This document shows, one piece after another, positions 6,313 through 64,000 of a stretch of 64,000 nt of DNA. Position numbers and translations under genes: made by a program. Origin of the DNA: Escherichia coli (GTDB lineage Bacteria; Pseudomonadota; Gammaproteobacteria; Enterobacterales; Enterobacteriaceae); the NCBI RefSeq assembly GCF_044647545.1, contig NZ_CP172818.1; one strand, given 5' to 3'. The first letter of the stretch is position 1, and every line of letters begins with the position of its first letter. The notes below the pieces were generated by a model. That model was not told where the DNA came from. It did no database searches and worked only from the letters and a program-made list of their open reading frames with translations.

Positions 6313-6316
<4 letters not shown>
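5630..6316 (+). CDS. ybbA: ABC transporter ATP-binding protein YbbA
   Basis: Walker A GESGSGKST and LSGGEQQR motifs; divergent from tesA. Confidence 0.85.
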
Positions 6317-10182
<3,866 letters not shown>

Positions 10183-21976: not shown

Positions 21977-22090
21977 CTATTACCTTTAAAGCGGATGCGA
22001 TTTATATCGCATATTGACTACAAAAAAAGCCACGGAATAAACCGTGGCAAAATCCAACATAGCTAAAAATAATCAGGCGAGTGGTATGAC

Positions 22091-44853: not shown

Positions 44854-44972
44854 TTTCTTTCCTCTGTTATGCCATCACCCGCGCTCACCTGGACAGTATG
44901 CAGCGGAGACTGAAGCGCCGCAATGCAGGCTTGCCGTGTTGTGAGGTACCCGGATATTATCGTGAGGATGCG

Positions 44973-45311
44973 TCATCGCCATTGCTCCCCAAATACAAAA
45001 CCAATTTCAGCCAGTGCCTCGTCCATTTTTTCGATGAACTCCGGCACCATCTCGTCAAAACTCGCCATGTACTTTTCATCCCGCTCAACCACGACATAAT
45101 GCAGTCCTTCACGCTTCATACGCGGGTCATAGTTGGCAAAGTACCAGGCATCTTTTCGTGTCACCCACATGCTGTACTGCACCTGGGCCATGTAAGCCGA
45201 CTTTATGGCCTCGAAACCACCGAGCCGGAACTTCATGAAATCCCGGGAGGTACGAGTATTGCCGGAAGCGCGGGCTGTATCCGGATGCAGAGTCTTATCC
45301 GTGGAAATCAA
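44973..45311 (-). pseudogene. exoD: Lambda exonuclease-like C-terminal fragment
   Basis: 112-codon ORF with exo-like C-terminus, no intact N-terminus. Confidence 0.55.
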
Positions 45312-45349
45312 ACGCGCACTACTGGCTGGTTACCAACCTGTATCAGAAC

Positions 45350-45562
45350 ATGCGGGCCAATGCGTTGACTGACGCGGAATTACGGCGCAAGGCTGCCGAT
45401 GAACTGTCCTGTATGACCGCACGAATTAACCGTGGTGAGGCTATACCTGAACCAGTAAAACAACTTCCTGTCATGGGCGGTAGACCTCTAAATCGTGCAC
45501 AGGCTCTGGCGAAGATCGCAGAAATCAAAGCTAAGTTTGGGCTGAAAGGAGCAAGGGTATGA
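45350..45562 (+). pseudogene. peaD: Replication protein P-like C-terminal fragment, stop overlapping ren start
   Basis: 70-codon ORF ending in ATGA overlap with ren, the lambda P-ren junction arrangement. Confidence 0.5.
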
Positions 45563-45707
45563 CGGGCAAAGAGGCAATTATTCATTACCTGGGGACTCAT
45601 AAGAAATTCTGTGCGCAGGACGTTGCCGCGGTAACAGGCGCAACGGTAATCTGATCTTACCCAGCAATAGTGGACACGCGGCTAAGTGAGTAAACTCTCA
45701 GTCAGAG

Positions 45708-46016
45708 GTGACTCACATGACAAAAACAGTATCAACCAGTAAAAAACCCCGTAAACAGCATTCGCCTGAATTTCGCAGTGAAGCCCTGAAGCTTGCTGAA
45801 CGCATCGGTGTTACTGCCGCAGCCCGTGAACTCAGCCTGTATGAATCACAACTCTACAACTGGCGCAGTAAACAGCAAAATCAGCAGACGTCTTCTGAAC
45901 GTGAACTGGAGATGTCTACCGAGATTGCACGTCTCAAACGCCAGCTGGCAGAACGGGATGAAGAGCTGGCTATCCTCCAAAAGGCCGCGACATACTTCGC
46001 GAAGCGCCTGAAATGA
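45708..46016 (+). CDS. insE: IS3 transposase OrfA
   Basis: 102 aa [35 protein letters not shown]. Confidence 0.9.
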
Positions 46017-46879
46017 AGTATGTCTTTATTGAAAAACATCAGGCTGAGTTCAGCATCAAAGCAATGTGCCGCGTGCTCCGGGTGGCCCGCAGCGGCTGGT
46101 ATACGTGGTGTCAGCGGCGGACAAGGATAAGCACGCGTCAGCAGTTCCGCCAACACTGCGACAGCGTTGTCCTCGCGGCTTTTACCCGGTCAAAACAGCG
46201 TTACGGTGCCCCACGCCTGACGGATGAACTGCGTGCTCAGGGTTACCCCTTTAACGTAAAAACCGTGGCGGCAAGCCTGCGCCGTCAGGGACTGAGGGCA
46301 AAGGCCTCCCGGAAGTTCAGCCCGGTCAGCTACCGCGCACACGGCCTGCCTGTGTCAGAAAATCTGTTGGAGCAGGATTTTTACGCCAGTGGCCCGAACC
46401 AGAAGTGGGCAGGAGACATCACGTACTTACGTACAGATGAAGGCTGGCTGTATCTGGCAGTGGTCATTGACCTGTGGTCACGTGCCGTTATTGGCTGGTC
46501 AATGTCGCCACGCATGACGGCGCAACTGGCCTGCGATGCCCTGCAGATGGCGCTGTGGCGGCGTAAGAGGCCCCGGAACGTTATCGTTCACACGGACCGT
46601 GGAGGCCAGTACTGTTCAGCAGATTATCAGGCGCAACTGAAGCGGCATAATCTGCGTGGAAGTATGAGCGCAAAAGGTTGCTGCTACGATAATGCCTGCG
46701 TGGAAAGCTTCTTTCATTCGCTGAAAGTGGAATGTATCCATGGAGAACACTTTATCAGCCGGGAAATAATGCGGGCAACGGTGTTTAATTATATCGAATG
46801 TGATTACAATCGGTGGCGGCGGCACAGTTGGTGTGGCGGCCTCAGTCCGGAACAATTTGAAAACAAGAACCTCGCTTAG
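46013..46879 (+). CDS. insF: IS3 transposase OrfB (DDE)
   Basis: 288 aa DDE integrase-core ORF in -1 frame relative to orfA. Confidence 0.9.
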
Positions 46880-47189
46880 GCCTGTGTCCATATTACGTGG
46901 GTAGGATCAACCAGCATAAATCAGGCTGCGGCTAAAATGGCACGGGCAGGTCTTCTGGCTATCGAAGGTAAGGTCTGGCGAACGGTGTATTACCGGTTTG
47001 CTACCAGAGAAGAACGGGAAGGAAAGGTGAGCACGAATCTGATTTTTAAGGAGTGTCGCCAGAGTGCCGCGATGAAACGGGTATTGAGGGTATATAAAAG
47101 AACATCAATGGGTACACAATGATGAAACAGGTGAGTTGAGTTCAAACTGTAGTACAATTCTCTCCAGTTTGAACAGGAAAGAATATTCT

Positions 47190-47522
47190 ATGAACCCTTA
47201 TATTTATCTTGGTGGTGCAATACTTGCAGAGGTCATTGGTACAACCTTAATGAAGTTTTCAGAAGGTTTTACACGGTTATGGCCATCTGTTGGTACAATT
47301 ATTTGTTATTGTGCATCATTCTGGTTATTAGCTCAGACGCTGGCTTATATTCCTACAGGGATTGCTTATGCTATCTGGTCAGGAGTCGGTATTGTCCTGA
47401 TTAGCTTACTGTCATGGGGACTTTTCGGCCAACGGCTGGACCTGCCAGCCATTATAGGCATGATGTTGATTTGTGCCGGTGTGTTGGTTATTAATTTATT
47501 GTCACGAAGCACACCACATTAA
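47190..47522 (+). CDS. emrE: Small multidrug resistance efflux protein EmrE
   Basis: 110 aa from MNPYIYLGGAILAEVIGTT with conserved membrane-embedded Glu14. Confidence 0.9.
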   Translation: MNPYIYLGGAILAEVIGTTLMKFSEGFTRLWPSVGTIICYCASFWLLAQTLAYIPTGIAYAIWSGVGIVLISLLSWGLFGQRLDLPAIIGMMLICAGVLVINLLSRSTPH

Positions 47523-47553
47523 AAATAATTTGTTTCTAAACGACTAAAATATG

Positions 47554-47587
47554 GAGGCTCTTATATTTATATGAGCCTCGTTTTATG
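47554..47587 (+). terminator. Rho-independent terminator after emrE
   Basis: GAGGCTC-12 nt loop-GAGCCTC followed by GTTTT. Confidence 0.5.
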
Positions 47588-47778
47588 CTTTTTGTTAATG
47601 TCTTTATTTTTTTATGTATTCTTTTGTGCTTTCAAGATTATGGCGTAAGAAAATTGCAATACGATTATTGTTGTATATTCAAGATAATGTGACCTTAATT
47701 GTCTTTTTAAATAAAAATTAAACAAAAATTATATCCCACCACTAAGGTTTATAAAAGCATACGTTAGCAGGTGTCACC

Positions 47779-49305
47779 ATGAAAAAAGCCATAGCATATA
47801 TGCGATTTTCATCACCAGGTCAGATGTCTGGCGACTCATTAAACCGACAGAGAAGACTTATTGCTGAATGGTTAAAGGTAAATAGTGATTATTATCTTGA
47901 TACCATAACATATGAAGATTTAGGATTAAGTGCATTCAAAGGAAAGCATGCACAATCAGGAGCTTTTTCGGAATTTTTAGATGCTATAGAGCATGGTTAT
48001 ATATTGCCAGGAACTACATTGTTAGTTGAAAGTCTGGACAGACTTTCAAGAGAAAAAGTCGGTGAAGCGATTGAACGTCTGAAATTGATTTTGAATCACG
48101 GTATTGATGTTATAACTCTTTGCGACAATACAGTCTATAATATTGACTCTTTGAATGAGCCATATTCATTAATAAAAGCCATACTTATAGCACAAAGGGC
48201 AAATGAAGAAAGCGAGATAAAGTCAAGTCGGGTTAAATTATCATGGAAGAAAAAACGGCAGGATGCACTGGAATCAGGTACGATTATGACGGCGTCTTGT
48301 CCGAGATGGCTCTCCTTAGATGACAAAAGAACGGCTTTTGTTCCAGACCCCGACAGGGTGAAAACTATTGAGCTAATTTTTAAACTCAGGATGGAAAGGC
48401 GCTCATTGAATGCAATAGCCAAGTATTTAAATGATCATGCTGTAAAGAATTTCTCAGGAAAAGAAAGTGCATGGGGACCTTCTGTAATTGAAAAATTATT
48501 AGCGAATAAAGCTCTGATAGGTATATGCGTACCTTCATATCGTGCAAGAGGTAAAGGAATAAGTGAAATCGCTGGCTATTATCCCAGAGTCATATCAGAT
48601 GATTTGTTTTACGCTGTACAGGAAATTCGGTTGGCACCTTTTGGTATTAGCAATAGTAGCAAAAATCCTATGTTGATAAATCTACTTCGAACAGTTATGA
48701 AGTGCGAGGCTTGTGGTAATACCATGATTGTTCATGCGGTATCTGGAAGTTTGCATGGCTATTATGTTTGTCCGATGAGAAGACTGCATCGATGTGACAG
48801 GCCATCAATAAAGAGAGATTTGGTTGATTATAATATCATTAATGAGTTGCTTTTTAATTGTAGTAAAATCCAACCAGTTGAAAACAAGAAAGATGCTAAT
48901 GAAACTTTAGAGTTGAAAATTATTGAGCTCCAGATGAAAATTAATAATTTAATTGCTGCATTATCTGTTGCGCCTGAAGTTACCGCTATAGCAGAAAAAA
49001 TCAGAGTATTAGATAAGGAATTACGAAGGGCTTCTGTATCATTAAAAACTTTGAAGAGTAAAGCGGTGAGTTCACTTGGTGATTTTCATGCTATTGACTT
49101 AACCAGTAAAAATGGGCGAGAGCTATGTCGTACACTTGCCTATAAAACATTCGAAAAAATCATAATCAATACAGATAATAAAACCTGTGATATCTATTTT
49201 ATGAATGGCATTGTTTTTAAACACTATCCTTTAATGAAAACAATATCCGCCCAGCAGGCGATAAGTACTCTCAAATATATGGTTGATGGTGAGGTTTATT
49301 TTTGA
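47779..49305 (+). CDS. ybcK: Large serine recombinase-like protein
   Basis: N-terminal resolvase catalytic domain (AYMRFSSPGQ), recombinase domain and Cys-rich zinc ribbon. Confidence 0.85.
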   Translation: MKKAIAYMRFSSPGQMSGDSLNRQRRLIAEWLKVNSDYYLDTITYEDLGLSAFKGKHAQSGAFSEFLDAIEHGYILPGTTLLVESLDRLSREKVGEAIERLKLILNHGIDVITLCDNTVYNIDSLNEPYSLIKAILIAQRANEESEIKSSRVKLSWKKKRQDALESGTIMTASCPRWLSLDDKRTAFVPDPDRVKTIELIFKLRMERRSLNAIAKYLNDHAVKNFSGKESAWGPSVIEKLLANKALIGICVPSYRARGKGISEIAGYYPRVISDDLFYAVQEIRLAPFGISNSSKNPMLINLLRTVMKCEACGNTMIVHAVSGSLHGYYVCPMRRLHRCDRPSIKRDLVDYNIINELLFNCSKIQPVENKKDANETLELKIIELQMKINNLIAALSVAPEVTAIAEKIRVLDKELRRASVSLKTLKSKAVSSLGDFHAIDLTSKNGRELCRTLAYKTFEKIIINTDNKTCDIYFMNGIVFKHYPLMKTISAQQAISTLKYMVDGEVYF

Positions 49306-49500
49306 GTAATAATCTTTTTTACGTCGTGCTATAGTAAGAAAGTGCAAGACAGAATTAATTATCTTTGACGAAACTTAATGGGTAATTACTTTGTTTGCTC
49401 CCACAAGCGAGTTTTGTACGGCTGTATTGGGGTAGTAAATGAGCTATACAATCTTAATCATTTGTTAGGTGAGAACTCTTGGTCGCAGATTCAAATACTG

Positions 49501-49550
49501 AAAATACGTGACAAATTATTATGAGCAAAATGGTGTATGTCACGTATTTT
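49501..49550. repeat. Perfect 13-bp inverted repeat (AAAATACGTGACA / TGTCACGTATTTT) with 24-bp spacer
   Basis: Read directly in ybcK-ybcL intergenic region. Confidence 0.6.
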
Positions 49551-49762
49551 GAATGGTAGGTTAAAAAATAACACCGACTTTCGTAGGTATTACTAATAAT
49601 AAAGCAGAGTTTTTAGATAGTATCAATGTGCTTTGTGTATATTGTGGCAAATAATTGGGTTGCTGAGGGGTAGAATGTGATTGCTTTTGCATGAACACTT
49701 TATGCATAATGAGATAAAGGAATATCAAATAAAGAACGATAGGTCATAACAAAGAGGTTTTT

Positions 49763-50312
49763 ATGAAAACACTTATCGTTTCAACTGTATTGGCATTCAT
49801 AACATTTTCTGCGCAGGCTGCAGCATTTCAGGTCACTAGTAATGAAATAAAAACAGGAGAGCAACTTACAACGTCTCATGTCTTTCTCGATTTGGGTGTG
49901 AAGGTGGTAATACATCGCCCTCATTAACCTGGTCTGGTGTTCCTGAAGGTACCAAAAGCTTTGCCGTAACTGTATATGATCCAGATGCACCTACAGGCAG
50001 TGGTTGGTGGCATTGGACTGTTGTTAATATTCCAGCAACAGTAACATATTTTCCGTTGATGCAGGGAGACGTGATGGAACAAAACTGCCGACTGGTGCTG
50101 TTCAAGGCCGAAATGATTTTGGCTATGCTGGGTTTGGTGGCGCATGTCCTCCTAAAGGAGATAAACCACATCATTACCAGTTTAAAGTATGGGCTCTAAA
50201 AACTGAAAAGATTCCTGTAGATTCTAACTCCAGCGGAGCGTTAGTTGGTTATATGCTTAATGCTAATAAAATCGCAACCGCTGAGATAACACCAGTTTAT
50301 GAGATAAAGTAG
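49763..50312 (+). pseudogene. ybcL: PEBP/RKIP-family periplasmic protein gene disrupted by two single-base frameshifts
   Basis: Signal peptide frame stops after 54 codons; [13 protein letters not shown] segment in -1 frame; [10 protein letters not shown] segment in a further -1 frame; total 550 bp. Confidence 0.75.
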
Positions 50313-50321
50313 GGTGAGAGT

Positions 50322-51119
50322 ATGCTGGCAAGAGGTAAGACTAACTTAAAGATCGAAGAAATACGGATGCATAAACATCATGAGATTCATAGGGTTAAGC
50401 CTCTTATGCCAGCTTTGTGTCGTATCCGTCAGGGAAAGAAAGTTATCAATTGGGAGACGCATACTTTAACTGTTGATAATAATCAAATAATATTATTTCC
50501 TTGTGGTTATGAATTTTATATTGAGAATTATCCTGAAGCAGGGCTTTATCTTGCAGAAATGCTTTACTTACCCATTGATTTAATTGAGAGTTTCCAAAAA
50601 CTTTATACGGTAACTGATCAAATACGTAACAAAACAAGTTTCTTTTTACCTCAGAATCCTGAGTTAATATATTGTTGGGAGCAACTAAAAACATCTGTTT
50701 CCCGAGGCTTCTCAACTAAAATTCAGGAGCACTTAGCAATGGGCGTTCTACTTTCGTTAGGAGTGAATCATGTTAATCATTTACTTTTATCATATAGTAA
50801 ACAATCATTGATAAGTCGTTGTTATAACCTGCTGCTATCCGAACCCGGCACAAAATGGACAGCAAACAAGGTTGCTCGATATCTCTACATTTCTGTTTCT
50901 ACATTACATCGCCGTCTAGCAAGCGAGGGGGTAAGTTTCCAAAGTATACTGGACGATGTGAGGTTAAATAATGCGTTGTCTGCTATACAAACGACGGTAA
51001 AACCTATAAGCGAGATTGCCAGAGAAAATGGTTATAAGTGTCCTTCTCGTTTTACTGAAAGATTTCATAATCGTTTTAATATAACACCAAGAGAGATAAG
51101 AAAAGCTTCCAGAGAGTAA
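50322..51119 (+). CDS. ybcM: AraC-family transcriptional regulator
   Basis: C-terminal AraC HTH ([26 protein letters not shown]). Confidence 0.8.
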
Positions 51120-51333
51120 AAGTGTTTTAAGAAGGAGCAATTCTATCGATTTTGATTTGCGATAATCAACTCGCCATAATCATGTCATCGGAGCCTGAAC
51201 AACTCCGGTGACTTCTGCGCTAAACGGGGACGTTTATGCGCACACACAATCCAAACTCTCTTCTCCCTCCACAGATGCAGAAATGCACCTGCGATATATT
51301 GTATCCAGCGTTTGACCTCTGCGGAGGTGAAGC

Positions 51334-51789
51334 GTGAATCTCCCACAAGATGGCATCAAATTACATCGCGGTAACTTCACCGCTATCGGTCGGCAGATCC
51401 AGCCTTATCTGGAGGAGGGCAAATGCTTTCGCATGGTGCTTAAACCGTGGCGTGAGAAACGCAGTCTTTCCCAGAATGCACTCAGCCACATGTGGTACAG
51501 CGAAATCAGTGAATACCTCATCAGCAGGGGTAAAACGTTCGCTACTCCAGCTTGGGTAAAAGATGCTCTCAAACACACATATCTCGGTTATGAAACCAAA
51601 GACCTGGTTGATGTCGTAACCGGTGATATCACCACTATCCAGTCGTTACGCCATACCTCCGATCTTGATACCGGAGAGATGTATGTCTTCCTGTGTAAGG
51701 TTGAAGCCTGGGCGGTGAATATTGGCTGCCACCTGACTATTCCGCAGAGCTGCGAGTTCCAGCTGCTCCGCGACAAGCAGGAGGCGTAA
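51334..51789 (+). CDS. ybcN: Prophage protein YbcN
   Basis: 151 aa ORF at head of nin-like gene block. Confidence 0.75.
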
Positions 51790-51959
51790 TGGCTACACCG
51801 CTTATTCGTGTCATGAACGGACACATCTACAGAGTACCAGATCGTCGTAAGCGTAAACCGGAGCTGAAGCCTTCCGAAATACCAACACTGCTCGGATATA
51901 CCGCCAGCCTGGTTGATAAAAAATGGTTGCGACTGGCAGCAAGGAGGAATCATGGCTGA
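51789..51959 (+). CDS. ninE: NinE-like protein
   Basis: 56 aa [21 protein letters not shown]..., start overlaps ybcN stop. Confidence 0.7.
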   Translation: MATPLIRVMNGHIYRVPDRRKRKPELKPSEIPTLLGYTASLVDKKWLRLAARRNHG

Positions 51960-52242
51960 TTTGAGAAAAGCAGCGCGTAGTCGGGAATGCCAGGTAAGAA
52001 TCCCTGGCGTATGTAATGGCAACCCTGAAACGTCTGTACTGGCACATATCCGGCTGACTGGATTGTGCGGCACCGGTACCAAACCGCCAGACCTGATTGC
52101 CACCATTGCATGTTCTGCCTGCCACGACGAAATCGACCGCCGCACACATTTTGTCGATGCTGCATATGCAAAAGAATGCGCGCTGGAAGGTATGGCGAGA
52201 ACACAGGTTATCTGGCTGAAAGAGGGGGTTATTAAGGCGTGA
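51952..52242 (+). CDS. ybcO: Prophage protein YbcO
   Basis: 96 aa Cys-rich ORF overlapping ninE end. Confidence 0.75.
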
Positions 52243-52601
52243 ATACCTACAGCATCACATTACCCTGGCCTCCGAGCAATAATCGCTATTACCGCCATAA
52301 TCGCGGGCGCACGCACGTCAGCGCAGAGGGGCAGGCATACCGCGATAACGTCGCCCGAATCATTAAAAACGCAATGCTGGATATCGGCCTGGCTATGCCT
52401 GTGAAAATCCGCATTGAGTGCCACATGCCGGATCGCCGTCGCCGTGACCTGGATAATCTGCAAAAAGCCGCTTTTGACGCACTCACTAAAGCAGGTTTCT
52501 GGCTGGATGATGCTCAGGTCGTTGATTACCGCGTTGTGAAGATGCCTGTTACCAAAGGTGGGAGGCTGGAACTGACCATCACCGAAATGGGGAATGAATG
52601 A
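52239..52601 (+). CDS. rusA: Holliday junction resolvase RusA
   Basis: 120 aa ORF with RusA catalytic Asp cluster. Confidence 0.9.
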
Positions 52602-52738
52602 TGTTTGAGTTTTATATGGCAGAACGTCTTCGCCACCGCTGGGGGCGTCTGCGCTTATATCGTTTCCCCGGTTCTGTTTTGACCGATTACCGAATACTGA
52701 AGAATTACGCCAAAACCCTGACAGGAGCAGGAGTATGA
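52598..52738 (+). CDS. ylcG: Small prophage protein YlcG
   Basis: 46 aa ORF with start overlapping rusA stop. Confidence 0.55.
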
Positions 52739-52823
52739 AGTCAGAGATAACAATCAACTAATACTGTTTCGTTGATTTTTGCTTGTAATTGGCGTTCTGG
52801 TCTGATTTTTGTGGAGTAAGTTG

Positions 52824-53207
52824 ATGCGTGATATTCAGATGGTTCTTGAGCGTTGGGGAGCGTGGGCGGCTAATAATCATGAAGATGTGACCTGGTCGTC
52901 CATTGCCGCCGGTTTTAAGGGATTAATTACTTCAAAAGTAAAATCTCGCCCACAATGTTGTGACGATGACGCGATGATCATTTGCGGGTGCATGGCCCGT
53001 CTGAAAAAGAACAACAGCGATTTGCATGATTTATTGGTGGACTATTATGTCGGCGGCATGACTTTTATGGCGCTTGCACGTAAGCATGGGCGATCTGATT
53101 GTTGGGTTGGCAGGATGCTTCAGAAAGCTGAGGGCGTAGTGGAGGGTATGCTGATGGTGTTGGATCTCCGATTGGAGATGGATGTCGTTGTTAATAACTC
53201 TAATTAA
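52824..53207 (+). CDS. quuD: Lambda Q-like late antiterminator
   Basis: 127 aa from [14 protein letters not shown] with Cys-rich zinc motif. Confidence 0.85.
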
Positions 53208-53458
53208 TATGCCAATTGTTTACTAAAAATTATTAAAAATGGGGCGTTGAGACGCCCCCAAAAATAAAGGGTAATATATAACAGAAGGTTTATATAGTTA
53301 GAAGCAAGGTTGTGCTTCTAAAGGAAGTGGCTTGAGGGAGCCACTTATATGTTGGGGAGGCAACGCCTCCCGCAACATATCTTTTTCGTAATCAGATTAG
53401 AACTGGTAAACCAGACCTACAGCAACGATGTCATCAGTGCTTACACCGAGTGCTTTAG

Positions 53459-54653
<1,195 letters not shown>

Positions 54654-56110
54654 TTAGTGAAGTCATTTTTGTCAAGCAGGTTGATTTTGTAATCAACGAA
54701 AGTAGACATATTTTTGTTGAAGTAATAGGTTGCACCTACATCAACATATTTGACTAAGTCCTGATCGCCCCATACTCCAAGATCCTTACCTTTAGATTGC
54801 AGGTAAGCAACGGACGGACGCAGACCGAAATCGAACTGATATTGTGCAACAGCTTCGAAGTTTTGGGCTTTATTAGCAACGAAGTGATCAGCAAATACAG
54901 TCATATTCTGGGTTTCAGAATAGGTAGTGGCCAGGTAAATGTTGTTAGCGTCATATTTCAGACCTGCGGCCCAAACTTCTGCATTTTTACCGGAAGCAAA
55001 TACTTCAGGAAGAACTTTCCCTGCATTAACTTGAGTGTCGGTACGATCAGATTTCGCATAAGTTGCACCGATACCGAATCCTTCGTATTCATAGGTAGCA
55101 GAGAAACCGAAGCCATCACCGTTACCTTCAGTGTAGTTATCGAAATCGCTACGATCGTTTTTGCCTTGGTACTGAATCGCAAAATCAAGACCATCAACCA
55201 GGCCAAGAAATCATAGTTACGGTAGGTTGCAACACCGTTGGTACGACCATTCATGAAGTTGTCAGCGGAAGCCCAGGAATCGCCACCCCATTCAACTAAC
55301 ATATCGGTATAAGCTGCGGCATCATAAGCAACACCGTAGTTACGGCCATAGTCAAATGACCACTCGTTATATTTCAAACCGGCGAAGGTTAAACGGGTTT
55401 TTTCCTGGTTTTCACCTTCGGGCTTGCTGGCGTCGAGGTTGTATTCAAACTGACCAAAACCAGTCAGTTCGCTGGTGATTTGGGTTTCACCTTTGAAGCC
55501 AAGACGGGCATAAGTAGTATCACCATCATCTGCATCATTAGAGGAGAAGTAGTGCTTAGCATTAACTTTCCCGTACAGATCCAGCTTGTTACTGTCTTTA
55601 TTATAAATTTCAGCTGCCTGAGCAGACATCGCCATTAGTACTGATGCAGCTACAGCAGAAATTGCCACTGTTAATTTTTTCATCGTGAGCCCTTTTTTTG
55701 AACTATTATTAAAAAATGATGTCACTGCGCGATAAATATTCATCTAATCAATGTGATTATTTCAAGATGTAAGTTTTGGTTTCTCGTTTGATTTGTGAAG
55801 TAGATCTCTATTTTTATCTGAACTTTTTTCTATCGAATCCTATTCATGGCTCTTGGCTGAATAAAAATAAATCTATTAGCCAATTTATATTAACGGCTGT
55901 TATTTATAAGTGCTCTATAATTTGAAGGTTCAATTTAAACCGGCTAAAAATAACACTGGAAATTATTTTTTGGTTATTTGTTGAGATTTGCTTATGTATT
56001 TGTAGTGGTGTTTTCAATACTCGGTAGCATTCTCTCAAATATCATTTAGTGGTTTACGTACGTAAAAAATTGGTTATGCTGTTAAGAGTGGTTACTTCGT
56101 CACACAGCTT

Positions 56111-56140
56111 AAACCCGCCGTCGAGCGGGTTTTTCCATTT
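56111..56140 (+). terminator. tR-prime-like terminator upstream of holin gene
   Basis: AAACCCGC-CGTCGA-GCGGGTTT followed by T run. Confidence 0.5.
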
Positions 56141-56258
56141 TTTGAGTCTCGATATTAGCTGATAACCCAATACCTGAGTTATTCACTGACTCCGAGTCTG
56201 TTACGTTTCGTAGTATTCCCTCAATTTACACCCATCCGTTATTTGCGGAGGTGAGGCT

Positions 56259-56474
56259 ATGAAATCCATGGATAAGTTAACAACGGGCATTGCCTACGGC
56301 ACCTCCGCAGGCAGTGCTGGCTACTGGTTTTTACAGCTGCTCGATAAAGTCACGCCCTCACAGTGGGCAGCAATAGGTGTGCTGGGTAGCTTGGTATTTG
56401 GCCTGCTGACGTACCTGACAAACCTTTATTTCAAGATTAAAGAAGATAAGCGCAAGGCTGCGAGAGGTGAATAA
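56259..56474 (+). CDS. essD: Class I holin (lambda S-like)
   Basis: 71 aa small TM protein heading the lysis cassette. Confidence 0.9.
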
Positions 56475-56971
56475 TGCCTCCATCATTACGAAAAGCCGTT
56501 GCTGCTGCTATTGGTGGCGGAGCAATTGCTATAGCATCAGTGTTAATCACTGGCCCAAGTGGTAACGATGGTCTGGAAGGTGTCAGCTACATACCATACA
56601 AAGATATCGTTGGCGTATGGACTGTATGTCACGGGCATACAGGAAAAGACATCATTCCCGGTAAAACGTATACCGAAGCAGAATGCAAAGCCCTCCTGAA
56701 TAAAGACCTTGCCACGGTAGCCAGACAAATTAACCCGTACATCAAAGTCGATATACCGGAAACAACGCGCGGCGCTCTTTACTCGTTCGTCTATAACGTG
56801 GGCGCAGGCAATTTCAGAACATCTACTCTTCTTCGCAAAATAAACCAGGGCGATATCAAGGGCGCATGTGACCAGCTACGTCGCTGGGCATACGCTGGCG
56901 GTAAGCAATGGAAAGGCCTGATGACTCGTCGTGAGATTGAGCGTGAGGTCTGTTTGTGGGGGCAACAATGA
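56474..56971 (+). CDS. rrrD: Phage lysozyme (T4 e-like endolysin)
   Basis: 165 aa ORF with glycoside hydrolase 24 catalytic E...D...T region. Confidence 0.9.
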
Positions 56972-57342
56972 GCAGAGTCACCGCGATTATCTCCGCTCTG
57001 GTTATCTGCATCATCGTCTGCCTGTCATGGGCTGTTAATCATTACCGTGATAACGCCATCGCCTACAAAGAACAGCGCGATAAAAAAGTCAGTGAGCTGA
57101 AGCAGGCGACCGCCACCATTACTGACATGCAGCAGCGCCAGCGTGATGCTGATGCACTCGATGCTAAATACACGAAGGAGTTAGCTGATGCGAAAGCTGA
57201 AAATGATGCTCTTCGGCGCAAGCTTGATAATGGTGGTCGGGTGCTCGTCAAAGGAAAATGCCCTGTGCCATCCTCAGCCGAAACCTCCAGCGCCTCCGGC
57301 ATGGGCAATGATGCCACCGTCGAACTCAAAGACCGAGAATAA
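56968..57342 (+). CDS. rzpD: Rz-like spanin (i-spanin), apparently truncated by frameshift
   Basis: [32 protein letters not shown]-terminus as in lambda Rz; frame stops after 124 codons. Confidence 0.7.
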
Positions 57343-57445
57343 AAACTATCCAGTTAGCGACGAATATCTGGACCCAATTATCGCGACCAAAACAGCACTG
57401 AGAACGCTTCAGGAATTCATCAGGACGCAATGTCCTTCGAGATAG
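57188..57445 (+). CDS. rzoD: Rz1-like o-spanin lipoprotein frame with abnormal 3-prime extension past the Rz stop
   Basis: Embedded +1 frame with lipobox MVVGC and Pro-rich segment; tail resembles Rz C-terminus. Confidence 0.5.
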
Positions 57446-57601
57446 CGATTATTTTACTCATCATTCCCTTCACATCTGGCTCTGTAGACAGTTCACTTCT
57501 GAAATCCAATAAACATCTCATTCTGATGCTTGATATTGAGCATTTTGCGCGCGGTAAGGGGCTGCGTTGAGATAAGAACCAGTAAAAATAAACCAGGATT
57601 T

Positions 57602-57663
57602 AGCCTCGCATTCGCGGGGCTTTTTATTGCCATTACAAAAGCCACTTCCTACAGAGTGGCTTT
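57602..57663. terminator. Back-to-back hairpins (bidirectional terminator) after lysis cassette
   Basis: GCCTCGC..GCGGGGCTTTTT and AAAAGCCACT-8 nt-AGTGGCTTT. Confidence 0.45.
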
Positions 57664-57919
57664 GATAATGGTTTATACCCTACACGGGATAACTTAACTG
57701 ATATCCCTTTTAAAGGATAAAGGTATTCAAGCCTGACACATCATGCGCTGTATCGTCGCCGTATTCCCGTATTAACAGAGACCGTAGCCCGACGGGGAAC
57801 TCCTTCTGCGCGAGTGTGCGGGAATAATCAAAAACGATGCACACCGGGGTTACCGGGTACACATATTTCATCATGCCAGCGAGTCCGGTTCTGGCACGGA
57901 AGAAACCGGACGTTATGAT

Positions 57920-58330
57920 TTAGTGCGGAAATATTTGTGTAGTGTTCTGAATGTTCTCAGTAAAGAGTAATGAATTATCAAAGGTATAGTAATACCTTTT
58001 GTTTTCGTGGATATTTGTAATCCATCTGAAAACCCCTGCTGTAGCAAGATTTTTCCTGTATTCGTAAAATGATAACTCTCCTGATTTGAATCCTTTTAAG
58101 GTGGCTTCTATAAGGCATTTATTTTTTGAAAATCTTACATTTACAACCTTACCCTGTCCTTTTATTAAAACCGTATTATCGTTTTCAAGAACAAGATGAA
58201 TATTCTCTGTAGCTAAATAGTAAATGTAATGTGAGACATTGTGACGTTTTAGTTCAGAATAAAACCAGTGATAGTTTAAATTATTTCGCACTTTATCGAA
58301 TATTTGTTTAAAAATGGCAACCTGAGCCAT
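57920..58330 (-). CDS. ybcV: DUF1398-family prophage protein
   Basis: [21 protein letters not shown]... Confidence 0.75.
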
Positions 58331-58662
58331 TGTGGTACCTTCCATGTGATATGAGGGGCGTAGTCTGCACGATTATCTAAATTGCTTCAATCTGGTCTGA
58401 TTTTTGAGAATTTAAATAAGCAGATTAGAAGGGAAACGCTGAAATTCATGTTGTTTTCAATAAACAAAGAATGGACGAAAAATCATAAAGACAATACTGC
58501 CAGGACAGGTTAAAAACTATCTTAATACACATTCGATGGTTAGATGTTTAATCATGTATAGAACATCATACCTAAAATACTAAAAGCAAAAGAAACGAAG
58601 GAATCCTCTATAATTAATCTATCAAAGAAGAGAATACGTATCTGACTAAGAGACTAATCAAC

Positions 58663-58896
58663 TCAGCAATCCTCGTATTTAGGGAATACAATACGTCCAG
58701 TGTCACTCTTTTCTTTGTTTGCTTCAGGAGAAACTCTTTTTTCTGAGCACAGTCTCCGGCGGCAGGCTTCAATGACCCAGGCTGAGAAATTCCCGGACCC
58801 TTTTTGATCAAGAGCGATGTTAATTTGTTCAATCATTTGGTTAGGAAAGCGGATGTTGCGGATTGTTGTTCTGCGGGTTCTGTTCTTCGTTGACAT
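58663..58896 (-). CDS. ylcI: DUF3950-family small protein
   Basis: ORF MSTKNRTRRTTIRNIRFPNQMIEQINIALDQKGSGNFSAWVIEACRRR. Confidence 0.65.
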   Translation of the reverse strand: MSTKNRTRRTTIRNIRFPNQMIEQINIALDQKGSGNFSAWVIEACRRRLCSEKRVSPEANKEKSDTGRIVFPKYEDC

Positions 58897-59079
58897 GAGG
58901 TTGTCCCGTATTTAGTGTCGCTGATTTGTATTGTCTGAAGTTGTTTTTACGTTAAGTTGATGCAGATCAATTAATATGATACCTGCGTCATAATTGATTA
59001 TTTGACGTGGTTTGATGGCGTAGATGCACGTTGTGACATGCAGATGATAATTATTATCATTTTGCGGGTCCTTTCCGGC

Positions 59080-59284
59080 GATCCGACAGGTTACGGGGCG
59101 GCGACCTCGCGGGTTTTCGCTATTTATGAAAAATTTCCGGTTTAAGGCGTTTCCGTTCTTCTTCGTCATAACTTAATGTTTTTATTTAAAATACCCTCTG
59201 AAAAGAAAGGAAACGACAGGTGCTGAAAGCGAGCTTTTTGGCCTCTGTCGTTTCCTTTCTCTGTTTTTGTCCGTGGAATGAACA
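59080..59284 (+). other. Lambda-type cos region: cosN (GGGCGGCGACCT at 59096-59107) and cosB upstream of Nu1
   Basis: Sequence matches remembered lambda left-end and right-end junction ...CGACAGGTTACG|GGGCGGCGACCTCGCGGGTTTTCGCTATTTATGAAAA. Confidence 0.8.
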
Positions 59285-59830
59285 ATGGAAGTCAACAAAA
59301 AGCAGCTGGCTGACATTTTCGGTGCGAGTATCCGTACCATTCAGAACTGGCAGGAACAGGGAATGCCCGTTCTGCGAGGCGGTGGCAAGGGTAATGAGGT
59401 GCTTTATGACTCTGCCGCCGTCATAAAATGGTATGCCGAAAGGGATGCTGAAATTGAGAACGAAAAGCTGCGCCGGGAGGTTGAAGAACTGCGGCAGGCC
59501 AGCGAGGCAGATCTCCAGCCAGGAACTATTGAGTACGAACGCCATCGACTTACGCGTGCGCAGGCCGACGCACAGGAACTGAAGAATGCCAGAGACTCCG
59601 CTGAAGTGGTGGAAACCGCATTCTGTACTTTCGTGTTGTCGCGGATCGCAGGTGAAATTGCCAGTATTCTCGACGGGCTCCCCCTGTCGGTGCAGCGGCG
59701 TTTTCCGGAACTGGAAAACCGACATGTTGATTTCCTGAAACGGGATATTATCAAAGCCATGAACAAAGCAGCCGCGCTGGATGAACTGATACCGGGGTTG
59801 CTGAGTGAATATATCGAACAGTCAGGTTAA
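59285..59830 (+). CDS. nohD: Terminase small subunit (Nu1 homolog)
   Basis: 181 aa [39 protein letters not shown], matching remembered lambda Nu1. Confidence 0.9.
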
Positions 59831-60548
59831 CAGGCTGCGGCATTTTGTCCGCGCCGGGCTTCGCTCACTGTTCAGGCCGGAGCCACAGACCGCCGTTGAA
59901 TGGGCGGATGCTAATTACTATCTCCCGAAAGAATCCGCATACCAGGAAGGGCGCTGGGAAACACTGCCCTTTCAGCGGGCCATCATGAATGCGATGGGCA
60001 GCGACTACATCCGTGAGGTGAATGTGGTGAAGTCTGCCCGTGTCGGTTATTCCAAAATGCTGCTGGGTGTTTATGCCTACTTTATAGAGCATAAGCAGCG
60101 CAACACCCTTATTCCAGCTGGCTTCGTGGCTGTTTTCAACAGTGATGAGTCATCGTGGCATCTCGTTGAAGATCATCGGGGTAAAACGGTTTATGACGTA
60201 GCGTCAGGGGACGCGTTATTTATTTCTGAACTCGGTCCGTTACCGGAAAATGTTACCTGGTTATCGCCGGAAGGGGAGTTTCAGAAGTGGAACGGTACAG
60301 CCTGGGTGAAAGATGCAGAAGCAGAAAAACTGTTCCGGATTCGGGAGGCGGAAGAAACAAAAAACAGCCTGATGCAGGTAGCCAGTGAGCATATTGCGCC
60401 ACTTCAGGATGCTGTAGATCTGGAAATCGCAACGGAGGAAGAAACCTCATTGCTGGAAGCCTGGAAAAAATATCGGGTGTTGCTGAACCGTGTTGATACA
60501 TCAACTGCACCTGATATTGAGTGGCCTACGAACCCTGTCAGGGAGTAA
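59805..60548 (+). pseudogene. aaaD: Fusion of terminase large subunit N-terminus (lambda A) to tail fiber assembly C-terminus
   Basis: [19 protein letters not shown]... (A N-term) switches near 60110 to Tfa-like sequence ending [17 protein letters not shown]... Confidence 0.75.
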
Positions 60549-60602
60549 TCATTGGGATTATGCCGCAGCACGTCTTAAGCAAGAACATGCTGCGGTTGGA
60601 TG

Positions 60603-61187
60603 CTATTTTTTTCCTGAAGCGGAAAACATTACTACAGTACCTTGAACCTTGGTTTTAACATTCTCGAAATGCTCTGAGAGTATATGTGTTAAGCCTTCTT
60701 CGGAATCTTTTGTGTTTGAAAAGATGCCTTTCTGATTGTAAATGCGCATCAGTTTTTGACCGAAGCTATTGTGCACAACTCCATCGCCAAGAATTGTGGC
60801 TCCGTATAGAGTTCCATCGTCAGTTAAGGCCTGCGCCGCATTGCGTATTACACAGCTTTTTGTAGATATATTTCCAGGCAGGCAGTGAAGAAGGTAAGAC
60901 ATGGAAATGGAATCAAATTGACCATGTAACGCCGCGGGATAAGGTTCAAAAACATCATGGCTAATTTTATGTTTAATTTTTGATTCCCCAGCCCTTGTAG
61001 ATGCCGCGTTCAGGCTAGCTTCGTTCAAATCCATTAAAGATATCAGACTACTCTCAGGTACGTGAGTAAGGTAAAACCCAGTTCCAACACCAATATCCAG
61101 ATGGTTGTTACCTAAATGTTCCAGAAAGTGTGGAAGAAGGTGTTCCTTTGTAGGACATCCCCATGCAAGCCGATTTGATACTCCCAA
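60603..61187 (-). CDS. ybcY: SAM-dependent methyltransferase-like protein (possibly truncated)
   Basis: ORF with methyltransferase motif LDIGVGTGF. Confidence 0.7.
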   Translation of the reverse strand: MGVSNRLAWGCPTKEHLLPHFLEHLGNNHLDIGVGTGFYLTHVPESSLISLMDLNEASLNAASTRAGESKIKHKISHDVFEPYPAALHGQFDSISMSYLLHCLPGNISTKSCVIRNAAQALTDDGTLYGATILGDGVVHNSFGQKLMRIYNQKGIFSNTKDSEEGLTHILSEHFENVKTKVQGTVVMFSASGKK

Positions 61188-61325
61188 AACCCACCAGTCA
61201 TAAAGCTTTAGGGTAAGTGGTGTGTAAATTCTAGCCCCATCATCTGTGTTTTTTTATTAATTTCACCATGTTATAGTTTTATTTGTGAATTAAATCAATT
61301 ATGGCAATGAATTACAAGGGGTTAA

Positions 61326-61586
61326 ATGCTGCCGCAGCATAGCGATATTGAAATAGCCTGGTATGCTTCAATACAGCAGGAGCCGAATGGCTGGAAGACC
61401 GTCACCACACAGTTCTACATCCAGGAATTCAGTGAGTATATTGCGCCACTGCAGGATGCTGTAGATCTGGAAATCGCAACGGAGGAAGAAAACTCGTTGC
61501 TGGAAGCCTGGAAAAAGTATCGGGTGCTGCTAAACCGTGTGGACACTTCCGTAGCACCAGATATCGAGTGGCTTATTCAACCATAA
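61326..61586 (+). pseudogene. tfaX: Tail fiber assembly protein C-terminal fragment
   Basis: 86-codon ORF whose C-terminal ~50 residues repeat the aaaD tail. Confidence 0.7.
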
Positions 61587-62131
61587 TAAACAGTATGTAT
61601 ATCATAGGTTATTAATTGTGAGTTTTTTCGGTGTGTTATTTGTTTGTTTGATGTTATGCTTTTGCGCCCCAAAAGGTTGTTTAGATGTATTTTATCAATT
61701 GATTTTCAATGTCGTTTAATAAAGAAAAATTAAGCAAGCTGGATGTTGGTTTTTTGTTAATTGAATGGTTCTAATAATGTTTTTTTACTGTTGTTGAATG
61801 TGACTTGATAAGAAATGCAAGTAAAAATGATACTCTTTTTATTTTAAATTCAAACGGTTGACATATATATAGCAAGAGGTTTCAGGTGCGTTGTAGTGAG
61901 TTTATGTTAATAAAAAGTATAGTAAGCGTTGAAAAATGTAACTTTGAAATACGTTAGAATAAAAAACAATATACATATAATAATTTAATCTTAAATGAAA
62001 TTTATTAAAATTTGCAAACTATAATTTTGTGTATAAAAATATAAATGCACATCATCCTGATTATGATTGTGTATTTAATTGGTTGTTATTTGACTGCTAT
62101 CAACTTGTTTTAATTTTATGATAGGTGCAAG

Positions 62132-62881
62132 ATGGATTATGTTTGCTCCGTAGTTTTCATCTGTCAATCATTTGATTTAATTATAAACAGGAGAGTTATC
62201 TCGTTCAAAAAAAATTCATTGTTTATTGTAAGCGACAAAATTAGAAGGGAGTTACCAGTATGCCCCTCTAAACTAAGAATTGTTGATATAGATAAGAAAA
62301 CATGTTTATCCTTTTTTATCGACGTGAATAATGAGCTGCCTGGCAAATTTACTCTTGATAAGAATGGCTATATTGCTGAAGAGGAACCTCCATTATCGCT
62401 TGTTTTTTCTCTGTTTGAAGGGATTAAAATAGCAGACTCACACTCCCTTTGGTTAAAAGAAAGACTATGTATATCCTTACTTGCCATGTTCAAAAAACGC
62501 GAAAGTGTAAATTCATTTATACTAACAAATATAAATACATTTACCTGTAAAATTACTGGAATAATCAGTTTTAATATTGAGCGGCAATGGCATTTAAAAG
62601 ATATTGCGGAATTGATTTATACGAGTGAAAGTTTAATAAAAAAAAGATTAAGGGATGAAGGAACGTCATTTACTGAAATATTGAGAGATACTAGGATGAG
62701 GTATGCAAAAAAACTCATAACTTCAAACTCTTATTCTATCAATGTCGTAGCCCAGAAATGTGGCTATAACAGTACTTCATATTTCATATGTGCATTTAAA
62801 GATTATTATGGTGTCACGCCATCTCATTATTTTGAGAAAATAATCGGCGTCACAGATGGAATAAACAAAACAATTGACTGA
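62132..62881 (+). CDS. appY: AraC-family regulator AppY
   Basis: 249 aa ORF with C-terminal AraC HTH, AT-rich codon usage. Confidence 0.9.
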
Positions 62882-63129
62882 TAATGTTTATTACAAGTTG
62901 CCTACATGTTAATTATAATATTATACAGCGTTTTTTTGATGTGATATTCTGGAACCATTAATTTGTAATTGGGTTGCTGTCGCCTATTTTATACATGCTA
63001 TAATTGATGGTTTTCTATGTGATTTAGTTAATAACCTTCTGGGTTTATTTTAAGGGTTAATTGTTACATTGAAATGGCTAGTTATTCCCCGGGGCGATTG
63101 TCACCTCGGGGAAATTTTAGTTGGCGTTC

Positions 63130-64000
63130 TTAAAATGTGTACTTAAGACCAGCAGTAGTGATGAAGTTATAGTTTTCTATGCCTGCACCATTTTTGCTGT
63201 AGTCTGAAGTGTTATCATTGTGATCATAAAGTGAAGTATTACCTTTTTTATTCGTAACCCGATTCCATGCGCCTTCAACATAAACTTTTGCGTTAGGTGT
63301 TACGTAATAACCTGCATTGACTGCAACAGAATAGTAATTTTGGTCTTTGACTTTACTGCGATAAGTGATTCTTTTTCCTGGGTCATAGTGCTCATCGTTA
63401 TCAGATGCTTCCACCCAGCCGCTGTATTTAAATGTGCCACCTAGCTCAAAATCTTCATAACGATAACTTCCAGTCAAGCCAATGTAGGGCATTTTAAAAC
63501 GTTGTTTGTAGCCGATTGCTCTTTCTCCATTCGGGAAGGAGCCGATATCATCTCTGAATCCCTCCTCAGAACTGTAGATATAGGAACCACCTCTGGCTGT
63601 AAAGCTATAACGGCTTTCCTGATATCCGGCCATGAGTCCCAGGCGGTAATTGGGTTCGTTGAGGAGCCAGCCTTTGATATTCAGATCAAATTCGTTGGCA
63701 TAATTGAGTTGTGTATCAGGGTGCCTACTTTCATCTGTCCAGGTTCCGGGGTTACTGGAATCCATCCAGTCCTGATCGACCATATTGCCACCTCGGCTGC
63801 CGAGAGTAGTCCAGCCCGCAGCCCCAATAGATATCTGGGGCATCAAATCCCAATTAATTGCACCTTTAATAATTGCAGCGTTATTGAATTTCCAGTCGAG
63901 TTGACTGACTTTTCGGCCTCCTTCTTCGGCTAGATAAACACGCTCTTTTGTTTTTCCGCTCAGAGTTCCAAGACTAATGTCCGCATTTATGTTGTCAGGA
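63130..64000 (-). CDS. ompT: Outer membrane protease OmpT (omptin), 3-prime portion; 5-prime end beyond window
   Basis: C-terminus ...YNFITTAGLKYTF and omptin beta-barrel sequence; frame open to window end. Confidence 0.9.
   Translation of the reverse strand, partial: PDNINADISLGTLSGKTKERVYLAEEGGRKVSQLDWKFNNAAIIKGAINWDLMPQISIGAAGWTTLGSRGGNMVDQDWMDSSNPGTWTDESRHPDTQLNYANEFDLNIKGWLLNEPNYRLGLMAGYQESRYSFTARGGSYIYSSEEGFRDDIGSFPNGERAIGYKQRFKMPYIGLTGSYRYEDFELGGTFKYSGWVEASDNDEHYDPGKRITYRSKVKDQNYYSVAVNAGYYVTPNAKVYVEGAWNRVTNKKGNTSLYDHNDNTSDYSKNGAGIENYNFITTAGLKYTF

Follow-up and report, generated by a model that had tools for sequence, protein, structure and literature searches.

Two frameshifts in ybcL of an ST648-type Escherichia coli genome are probably assembly errors in what appears to be a K-12-templated consensus

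The prophage gene ybcL is broken by two -1 frameshifts in the E. coli contig NZ_CP172818.1 (assembly GCF_044647545.1), and comparison with related sequences suggests that these are probably assembly errors and not mutations in the organism. The analysis covered one stretch of 64,000 nt from this contig, which is referred to below as the window. The frame breaks were confirmed to be present in the sequence as given. They are private, they lie in a cluster of changes with an unnatural spectrum, and the same window holds template-derived artefacts. As a whole, the window looks like the consensus sequence of an ST648-type (phylogroup F) isolate of E. coli, made on a K-12-like template. We infer that the same process made the ybcL lesions and the other artefacts of the window, and likewise what type of pipeline produced them. 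The frame breaks are not reportable as a biological pseudogene without read-level confirmation. An earlier note, made from the sequence alone, had implied such a pseudogene; this reading is not supported, in view of the 738-bp deletion-biased cluster in which the lesions lie, its unnatural spectrum, and the corruptions of the same kind found in the window.

Results

Reading frame and identity of ybcL

Three-forward-frame translation of positions 49763-50312 revealed that ybcL is readable in three successive -1 frames. An ORF of 54 codons starts with the ATG at 49763, and a tblastn search with K-12 YbcL as the query returned three pieces in three frames of the window (Table 1), with the 5' fragment aligning to residues 1-47 and the C-terminal 85 residues being 100% identical to residues 99-183. 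A single uninterrupted 183-codon ORF is absent: the signal-peptide codons are intact, and the remainder is split between two other frames. At 550 bp, the locus is shorter than the 552 bp of MG1655 and six other natural alleles, and the tblastn search detected no second ybcL copy within the window. These results agree with the earlier note, which had described a frame from 49763 that ends after 54 codons, a PEBP segment in the -1 frame, a C-terminal segment in a further -1 frame, and a locus of 550 bp instead of the 552 bp of an intact gene.

The frame-corrected translation matched the Pfam family PBP (PF01161, E = 5.9e-42, residues 42-180), and the gene occupies the DLP12-type ybcK-ybcL-ybcM position, with gene order and near-identical surrounding DNA agreeing with MG1655 and 29 natural prophage contigs. 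Domain and cassette position both identify the gene as the PEBP/RKIP-family orthologue of YbcL, the assignment that had been proposed from the sequence alone. K-12 ybcL (b0545; DLP12; PDB 1FUX) has the same context as the window (emrE-ylcJ-ybcK-ybcL-ybcM-ybcN), its cassette DNA is identical outside the private cluster described below, and the frame-corrected product of the window is nearly identical to 1FUX. The window differs from it in its 550-bp length, its three frames, its upstream indels and, if the frame were restored, in Gly44>Arg and a change at Leu97/Pro98. K-12 YbcL also matched the YbhB structure 1FJJ.

The earlier note had taken K-12 YbcL to be an intact, exported protein, and this is consistent with 1FUX, which begins at precursor residue 20, and with a review that describes YbcL as periplasmic and released by lysis (PMC4810123). 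According to the same review, the uropathogenic YbcL variant suppresses neutrophil transmigration, whereas the K-12/commensal variant is inactive through one residue (PMC4810123). The uropathogenic YbcL of the UTI89/CFT073 type belongs to the same gene family and to the same emrE-linked prophage cassette as the gene in the window. At precursor codon 99, the window has GTT (Val, the K-12/commensal type), whereas CFT073 has ACT (Thr). This codon would correspond to mature position 78, reported by Lau et al. 2012 as the residue behind the commensal inactivity. A full-text literature search for V78T returned nothing relevant.

The two lesions at base level

Base-level alignment to intact alleles revealed that each of the two shifts couples a deletion with a substitution; these differences between lesion and intact allele are direct comparisons and involve no statistics. 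In lesion 1, a T is lost from the T4 run at 49883-49886, which shifts the gene to the -1 frame, and a G>C change follows five bases downstream; this substitution is the GGA>CGA change behind Gly44>Arg. Lesion 2 is TTGCCC>TTTCC in codons Leu97-Pro98, adjoining Val99. The first shift had previously been placed near 49886-49890, in agreement with the alignment. The second had been placed at 50062-50066, about 10 nt downstream of its actual site at 50052/50053, and had been explained by loss of a G from a GTT codon; the GTT codon beside lesion 2 (Val99) is intact. The description of the lesions as two independent single-base frameshifts stands insofar as the frame is broken twice, but each break is a deletion plus a substitution and both belong to one private cluster.

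Table 1. Features discussed in the text, with their coordinates in the window
Feature	Position	Strand	Description
Garbled orphan stretch	8702-9060		Replaces the ybbP 3' end and the ybbP-mnmH intergenic region
Private compound change	49315-49325		Just 3' of the ybcK stop; ST648-type ACTTTTTCAACC > TTTTTTACGTC; first site of the cluster
ybcL-ybcM cassette	49344-51158	+	Identical to natural K-12-type cassettes outside the private cluster; joints ...AAAGT/GCAAGAC and TTTGATTT
Private changes upstream of ybcL	49663-49735		Insertion of CTGA, C>G at 49673, deletion of T at 49676, deletion of TTGCGC at 49698, AT>G at 49734
ybcL 5' fragment	49763-49927	+	Start codon, signal peptide, residues to ~Phe42, out-of-frame tail, TAA at 49925-49927
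ybcL middle segment	49882-50067	+	PEBP core (~residues 41-102), only in the -1 frame; from translation and tblastn
Lesion 1	49883-49888	+	One T lost from a TTTT run (GTCTTTTCTGG > GTCTTTCTCG) plus G>C at 49888
Lesion 2	50052-50053	+	TATTTGCCCGTT > TATTTTCCGTT; one base lost and one substitution; second -1 shift
ybcL 3' segment	50055-50312	+	Residues 99-183, second -1 frame; stop TAG at 50310-50312
ybcM	50322-51119	+	AraC-type regulator; intact, protein 100% identical to K-12
nmpC patch	55176-55485	-	310 bp from the hchA-adjacent porin paralog, 98.5% identical to FDAARGOS_497
Degraded stretch downstream of Rz	57328-57620		From alignment to ST648-type sequence
Degraded copy of the K-12 ybcW region	58402-58733		332 bp from the 616 bp of K-12; scattered bases missing

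Distribution and clustering of the lesions

Searches across several collections revealed intact ybcL and no second instance of the lesions. The gene is carried by 3233 of 5426 complete E. coli genomes; the best identity to the window locus was 99.1%, and none of the 3233 ybcL-bearing genomes shared the lesions. It was intact in the six sampled alleles and in 29 full-length natural prophage cassettes; in each of the 35 natural alleles examined, YbcL is encoded without a change of frame. Exact-pattern scans found the intact K-12-type site-1 sequence in 36 viral (prophage) contigs; they found the site-1 frameshift allele in no viral or metagenome contig and the site-2 allele in no viral contig or species-representative genome. 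Furthermore, the 54-aa truncated product had no record among 153 billion gene positions. Recurrence of the lesions in independent sequences of the lineage was thus not found in genomes, contigs, or the gene-product index. An origin of the lesions in another natural ybcL allele or paralog was rejected, as they are absent from the CFT073, ACN002, O111, and THO-008 alleles and from the 36 prophage contigs.

Both ybcL lesions belong to a cluster of 13 private event sites within 738 bp (49315-50052), seven of which involve indels, six of these being deletions. The CTGA insertion in the region upstream of ybcL spans 49663-6. The closest natural cassettes (e.g., L056 and L047) equal the window over all 1815 bp from 49344 to 51158 except for the cluster changes, which within the cassette are the upstream set at 49663-49734, the deletion of T at 49883-6, G>C at 49888, and GC>T at 50052. 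The density of lesions in the cluster is about 2%. The 1.1 kb that follow, with the remaining part of ybcL and all of ybcM, contain no private event, and three private differences occur elsewhere in ~50 kb of comparable sequence. A clustering scan over ~51 kb of comparable sequence gave a crude bound of ~1e-20, which still counted position 49589 as a fourteenth site. This position was dropped from the private set; its A is a common natural allele, present in 32 of 36 contigs, and MG1655 has G there.

The spectrum of the cluster also differed from natural variation, with 9 substitutions and 7 indels compared to 103 and 5 in natural comparisons drawn from the same window and cassette (Fisher p = 8e-5). 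As an instance of such a comparison, positions 60113-64000 show 26 substitutions relative to K-12 and a single homopolymer indel. With 13 sites in 738 bp, unchanged flanks, and this spectrum, the lesion pattern does not conform to natural mutation with relaxed selection. AT-richness was rejected as a cause of the patch, whose GC content (36.5%) is the same as that of the clean flanks. A promoter scan of the region upstream of ybcL gave nothing above the shuffled expectation.

Composition of the window

The core of the window (1-44948) hardly differed from strain ST648 (NZ_CP008697.1): ~35 kb contained one mismatch and no 1-bp indels, too few differences for a globally error-prone assembly. Because the rest of the assembly is this clean, errors in it would be local. 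The DLP12 prophage (44947-60112, argU) has the K-12 junctions to the base, namely exo'/P', IS3 in ren, IS5 in nmpC, and terminase'/tfa'. Prophage segments with a counterpart in the intact lambdoid prophage of ST648 were 99.75-100% ST648-type, except for patches in the lysis region (56976-57164 and 57328-57620), while segments missing from the ST648 prophage were K-12-type or degraded K-12 sequence. ST648 alleles reached within 0-5 nt of each homology edge where a discriminating site lies so close. The K-12-only segments were 0% divergent and the adjacent backbone 2-5% divergent from K-12, a combination that vertical descent cannot yield. Natural crossovers would not be expected to lie all at the extreme edges of homology.

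Only those ST648-type insertions relative to K-12 that are 6 bp or shorter are present in the window. The absent ST648-specific segments measure 14 bp, ~590 bp (the ybbP-mnmH intergenic region), 2.56 kb, 5.4 kb (the exo-P region), and 1.2 kb (the cassette), and the late genes are absent as well. The window therefore shows the features of a templated consensus: K-12 structure with isolate alleles up to the edges; template sequence that is kept, corrupted, or hybrid; and missing large insertions. The window's ybcK allele is very common and was linked to the other, ST648-type cassette in 10/10 contigs examined. No natural genome was found with the window's ybcK/ybcL junction (best match 96.7%) or with the ST648-type P'/ren'::IS3 junction (best match 97.4%). 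The chimeric Q antiterminator (52824-53207) and the truncated porin product had no record anywhere. Force-alignment of the ST648 cassette was rejected as the source of the ybcL lesions, as outside the boundary sequences this cassette and that of K-12 are not homologous.

The nmpC::IS5 region and most of the ybcL-ybcM cassette are identical to MG1655, the cassette differing at 49589. Since the A at this position is a natural allele, real DNA or a non-MG1655 template would have contributed to the cassette, and the isolate may truly carry ybcL. One possibility is that a K-12-like strain different from MG1655 served as template, another that the cassette is covered by real reads. A pure MG1655 template is only partly tenable in view of this allele and of the ST648-type sequence at 57744-58400, which is 83% identical to K-12.

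Several smaller observations concern the comparison with ST648. At position 22013, in the glxK-allE intergenic region, the 14-bp ST648 stretch CTTTTTTTACCTGA is missing, and K-12 has an unrelated, REP-containing sequence of ~118 bp there. Positions 287-299 (vs L004 10287-12846) are without the 2.56-kb cueR-ybbJ island of ST648, which encodes hypothetical proteins and a YadA-family adhesin. ST648-type prophages (L005 20669-21886) hold a P22AR C-terminal domain protein and a hypothetical protein where ybcL-ybcM would sit, and this alternative cassette is flanked by the same boundary sequences as window positions 49344-51158 (...AAAGT and TTTGATTT). The ylcJ gene (47564-47718) matches K-12 YlcJ only from residue 13; its DNA is that of ST648, where the gene is annotated as frameshifted.

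Other corrupted patches in the window

The orphan stretch at the ybbP 3' end is T-poor between 8702 and 9031 (34% G, 13% T), contains G7 and A12 runs, and has flanks identical to ST648. Its positions 8702-8990 matched no E. coli genome among the complete genomes, the 37 nt of 8995-9031 are K-12-only, and a base-by-base K-12/ST648 hybrid follows at 9032-9060, with ST648 bases standing in K-12 spacing. The stretch removes the ybbP stop, so that ORF 6313-9186 encodes 957 aa compared to 804 aa; the extended 957-aa YbbP product had no record anywhere.

Alignment of 58402-58733 to the K-12 ybcW region gave 298 matches, 21 mismatches, and 297 missing bases (z = 10.3 against shuffled sequences), and ST648 has only 23 bp at this position. 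We know of no biological process that removes scattered bases from one segment and leaves its flanks perfect. In the degraded stretch downstream of Rz, positions 57370-57620 were 87.7% identical to ST648-type sequence with 22 gap positions, mostly dropped G, while ~57328-57369 matched neither reference.

The nmpC patch, by which nmpC is split into two frames, contains a private 1-bp deletion as well as a T>C change plus a 3-bp deletion. Real gene conversion could have produced it, or paralog reads placed on the template, and the latter explains it best. In a further patch, at 56976-57164 (from the end of rrrD into the start of Rz), there are 13 substitutions and no indels relative to ST648; this one looks like a natural recombination patch, unlike the indel-rich patches.

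Discussion

The reading that we prefer for ybcL is that of a consensus error in a templated assembly. Under such a process, the consensus would take the isolate alleles perfectly where the isolate has homologous DNA; where the isolate is without a homologue, template sequence would be kept or left with scattered bases missing. Positions 49315-50053 run from the left cassette joint across the ybcL promoter region into the gene, of which they take in the first 55%; this interval would then be a mild case of the same deletion-biased corruption, reaching about 700 bp into the cassette from that joint, and two of the dropped bases would have fallen by chance in the ybcL coding sequence and given two -1 shifts. 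Some observations speak against an artefact. The corruption of ybcL is mild (about 2%) beside the heavily degraded patches, the cassette's right joint is free of comparable noise, and the cassette is not verbatim MG1655 (49589). Simple short-read mapping also fails to explain why 57744-58400, at 83% identity to K-12, is ST648-type. Furthermore, a T4 run such as that of lesion 1 is a natural slippage site, and real pseudogenes are common in DLP12, which is a prophage in decay.

It is unlikely, in our assessment, that ybcL is instead a genuine lineage-private pseudogene of the defective DLP12 prophage, broken by two -1 shifts, of which slippage in the T4 run caused one, and altered further once selection was lost. 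The frame is broken in the sequence and lesion 1 lies in a homopolymer; decay of DLP12 is seen, with ylcJ frameshifted in ST648 and nmpC interrupted by IS5; and 49589 carries a natural non-MG1655 allele. The K-12-type allele (Val99) reportedly cannot suppress neutrophil migration (PMC4810123), so its loss would cost little. However, neutral decay cannot put 13 events in 738 bp and leave the adjacent 1.1 kb and ~50 kb essentially unchanged, the indel-rich spectrum is unlike natural variation, the lesions were found in no other sequence searched, and consensus artefacts of this type are proven elsewhere in the window (the hybrid at 9032-9060 and the stretch at 58402-58733). If the lesions were real, they would represent ordinary decay of a K-12-type, reportedly non-suppressive ybcL in a defective prophage, and would mean little for biology.

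Very little probability remains, in our view, for the cluster being a real localized mutational burst or conversion tract that arose in one event, by error-prone repair, template switching, or gene conversion from a decayed ybcL. Tight clustering does suggest a single event, and nmpC, provided its patch is real, offers an example of patch-wise replacement. However, there is no direct or inverted template nearby, and the longest ectopic matches (7-8 nt) equal the random expectation of 7.9, on which ground template-switch (quasi-palindrome) mutagenesis was rejected. No donor allele occurs in the 3233 genomes or the 36 prophage contigs, and for the nmpC patch, paralog reads on the template are the best explanation. 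A lesion density of ~2% with seven indels far exceeds known repair-associated mutagenesis. It is correspondingly a long shot that a real burst, for example in one error-prone repair event, knocked out the promoter-proximal half of ybcL in an ST648-type DLP12 remnant; if true, it would be a case of natural kataegis-like clustered mutagenesis inactivating a prophage-borne immune-modulator homologue in extraintestinal E. coli. Programmed ribosomal frameshifting, in which two -1 recoding events would restore full-length YbcL, is effectively refuted: both shifts are -1, but neither site has an X XXY YYZ slippery heptamer (GTC TTT CTC; TAT TTT CCG), the shifts are not conserved given that 35/35 natural alleles are single-frame, and a substitution is also present at each site.

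The main value of these results concerns data quality. The window, and probably the genome as a whole, looks like a consensus made under the guidance of a template, whose sequence was kept, hybridised, or left with scattered bases missing. Given such a consensus, the apparent pseudogenes, the chimeric genes (Q, nmpC, and the extended ybbP), and the 'mosaic' prophage are not to be taken as biology. Similar records templated on MG1655 are present among the RefSeq complete genomes, and surveys of pseudogenes or pangenomes can be contaminated by them.

Comparable records were found among patient isolates. BHUCD01 (NZ_CM183442.1), BHUCD02 (NZ_CM183444.1), and PD007 (NZ_CP120910.1) are RefSeq records with the length (~4.6415-4.6418 Mb) and architecture of MG1655, and all three appear to be reference-templated consensus genomes. 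They have IS3 in ren, isolate alleles where the isolate is homologous, and template sequence kept elsewhere, as does the window with its ST648-type isolate. BHUCD01 retains 2 kb of pure MG1655 ylcJ-ybcK sequence between CFT073-type emrE and ybcL-ybcM alleles, and CFT073-type prophages are without ylcJ-ybcK. Unlike these MG1655-templated records, the window is not colinear with MG1655 everywhere, its rhsD interval being collapsed to ~330 bp; some of its template-only regions have scattered missing bases instead of being kept, and it carries the non-MG1655 allele at 49589.
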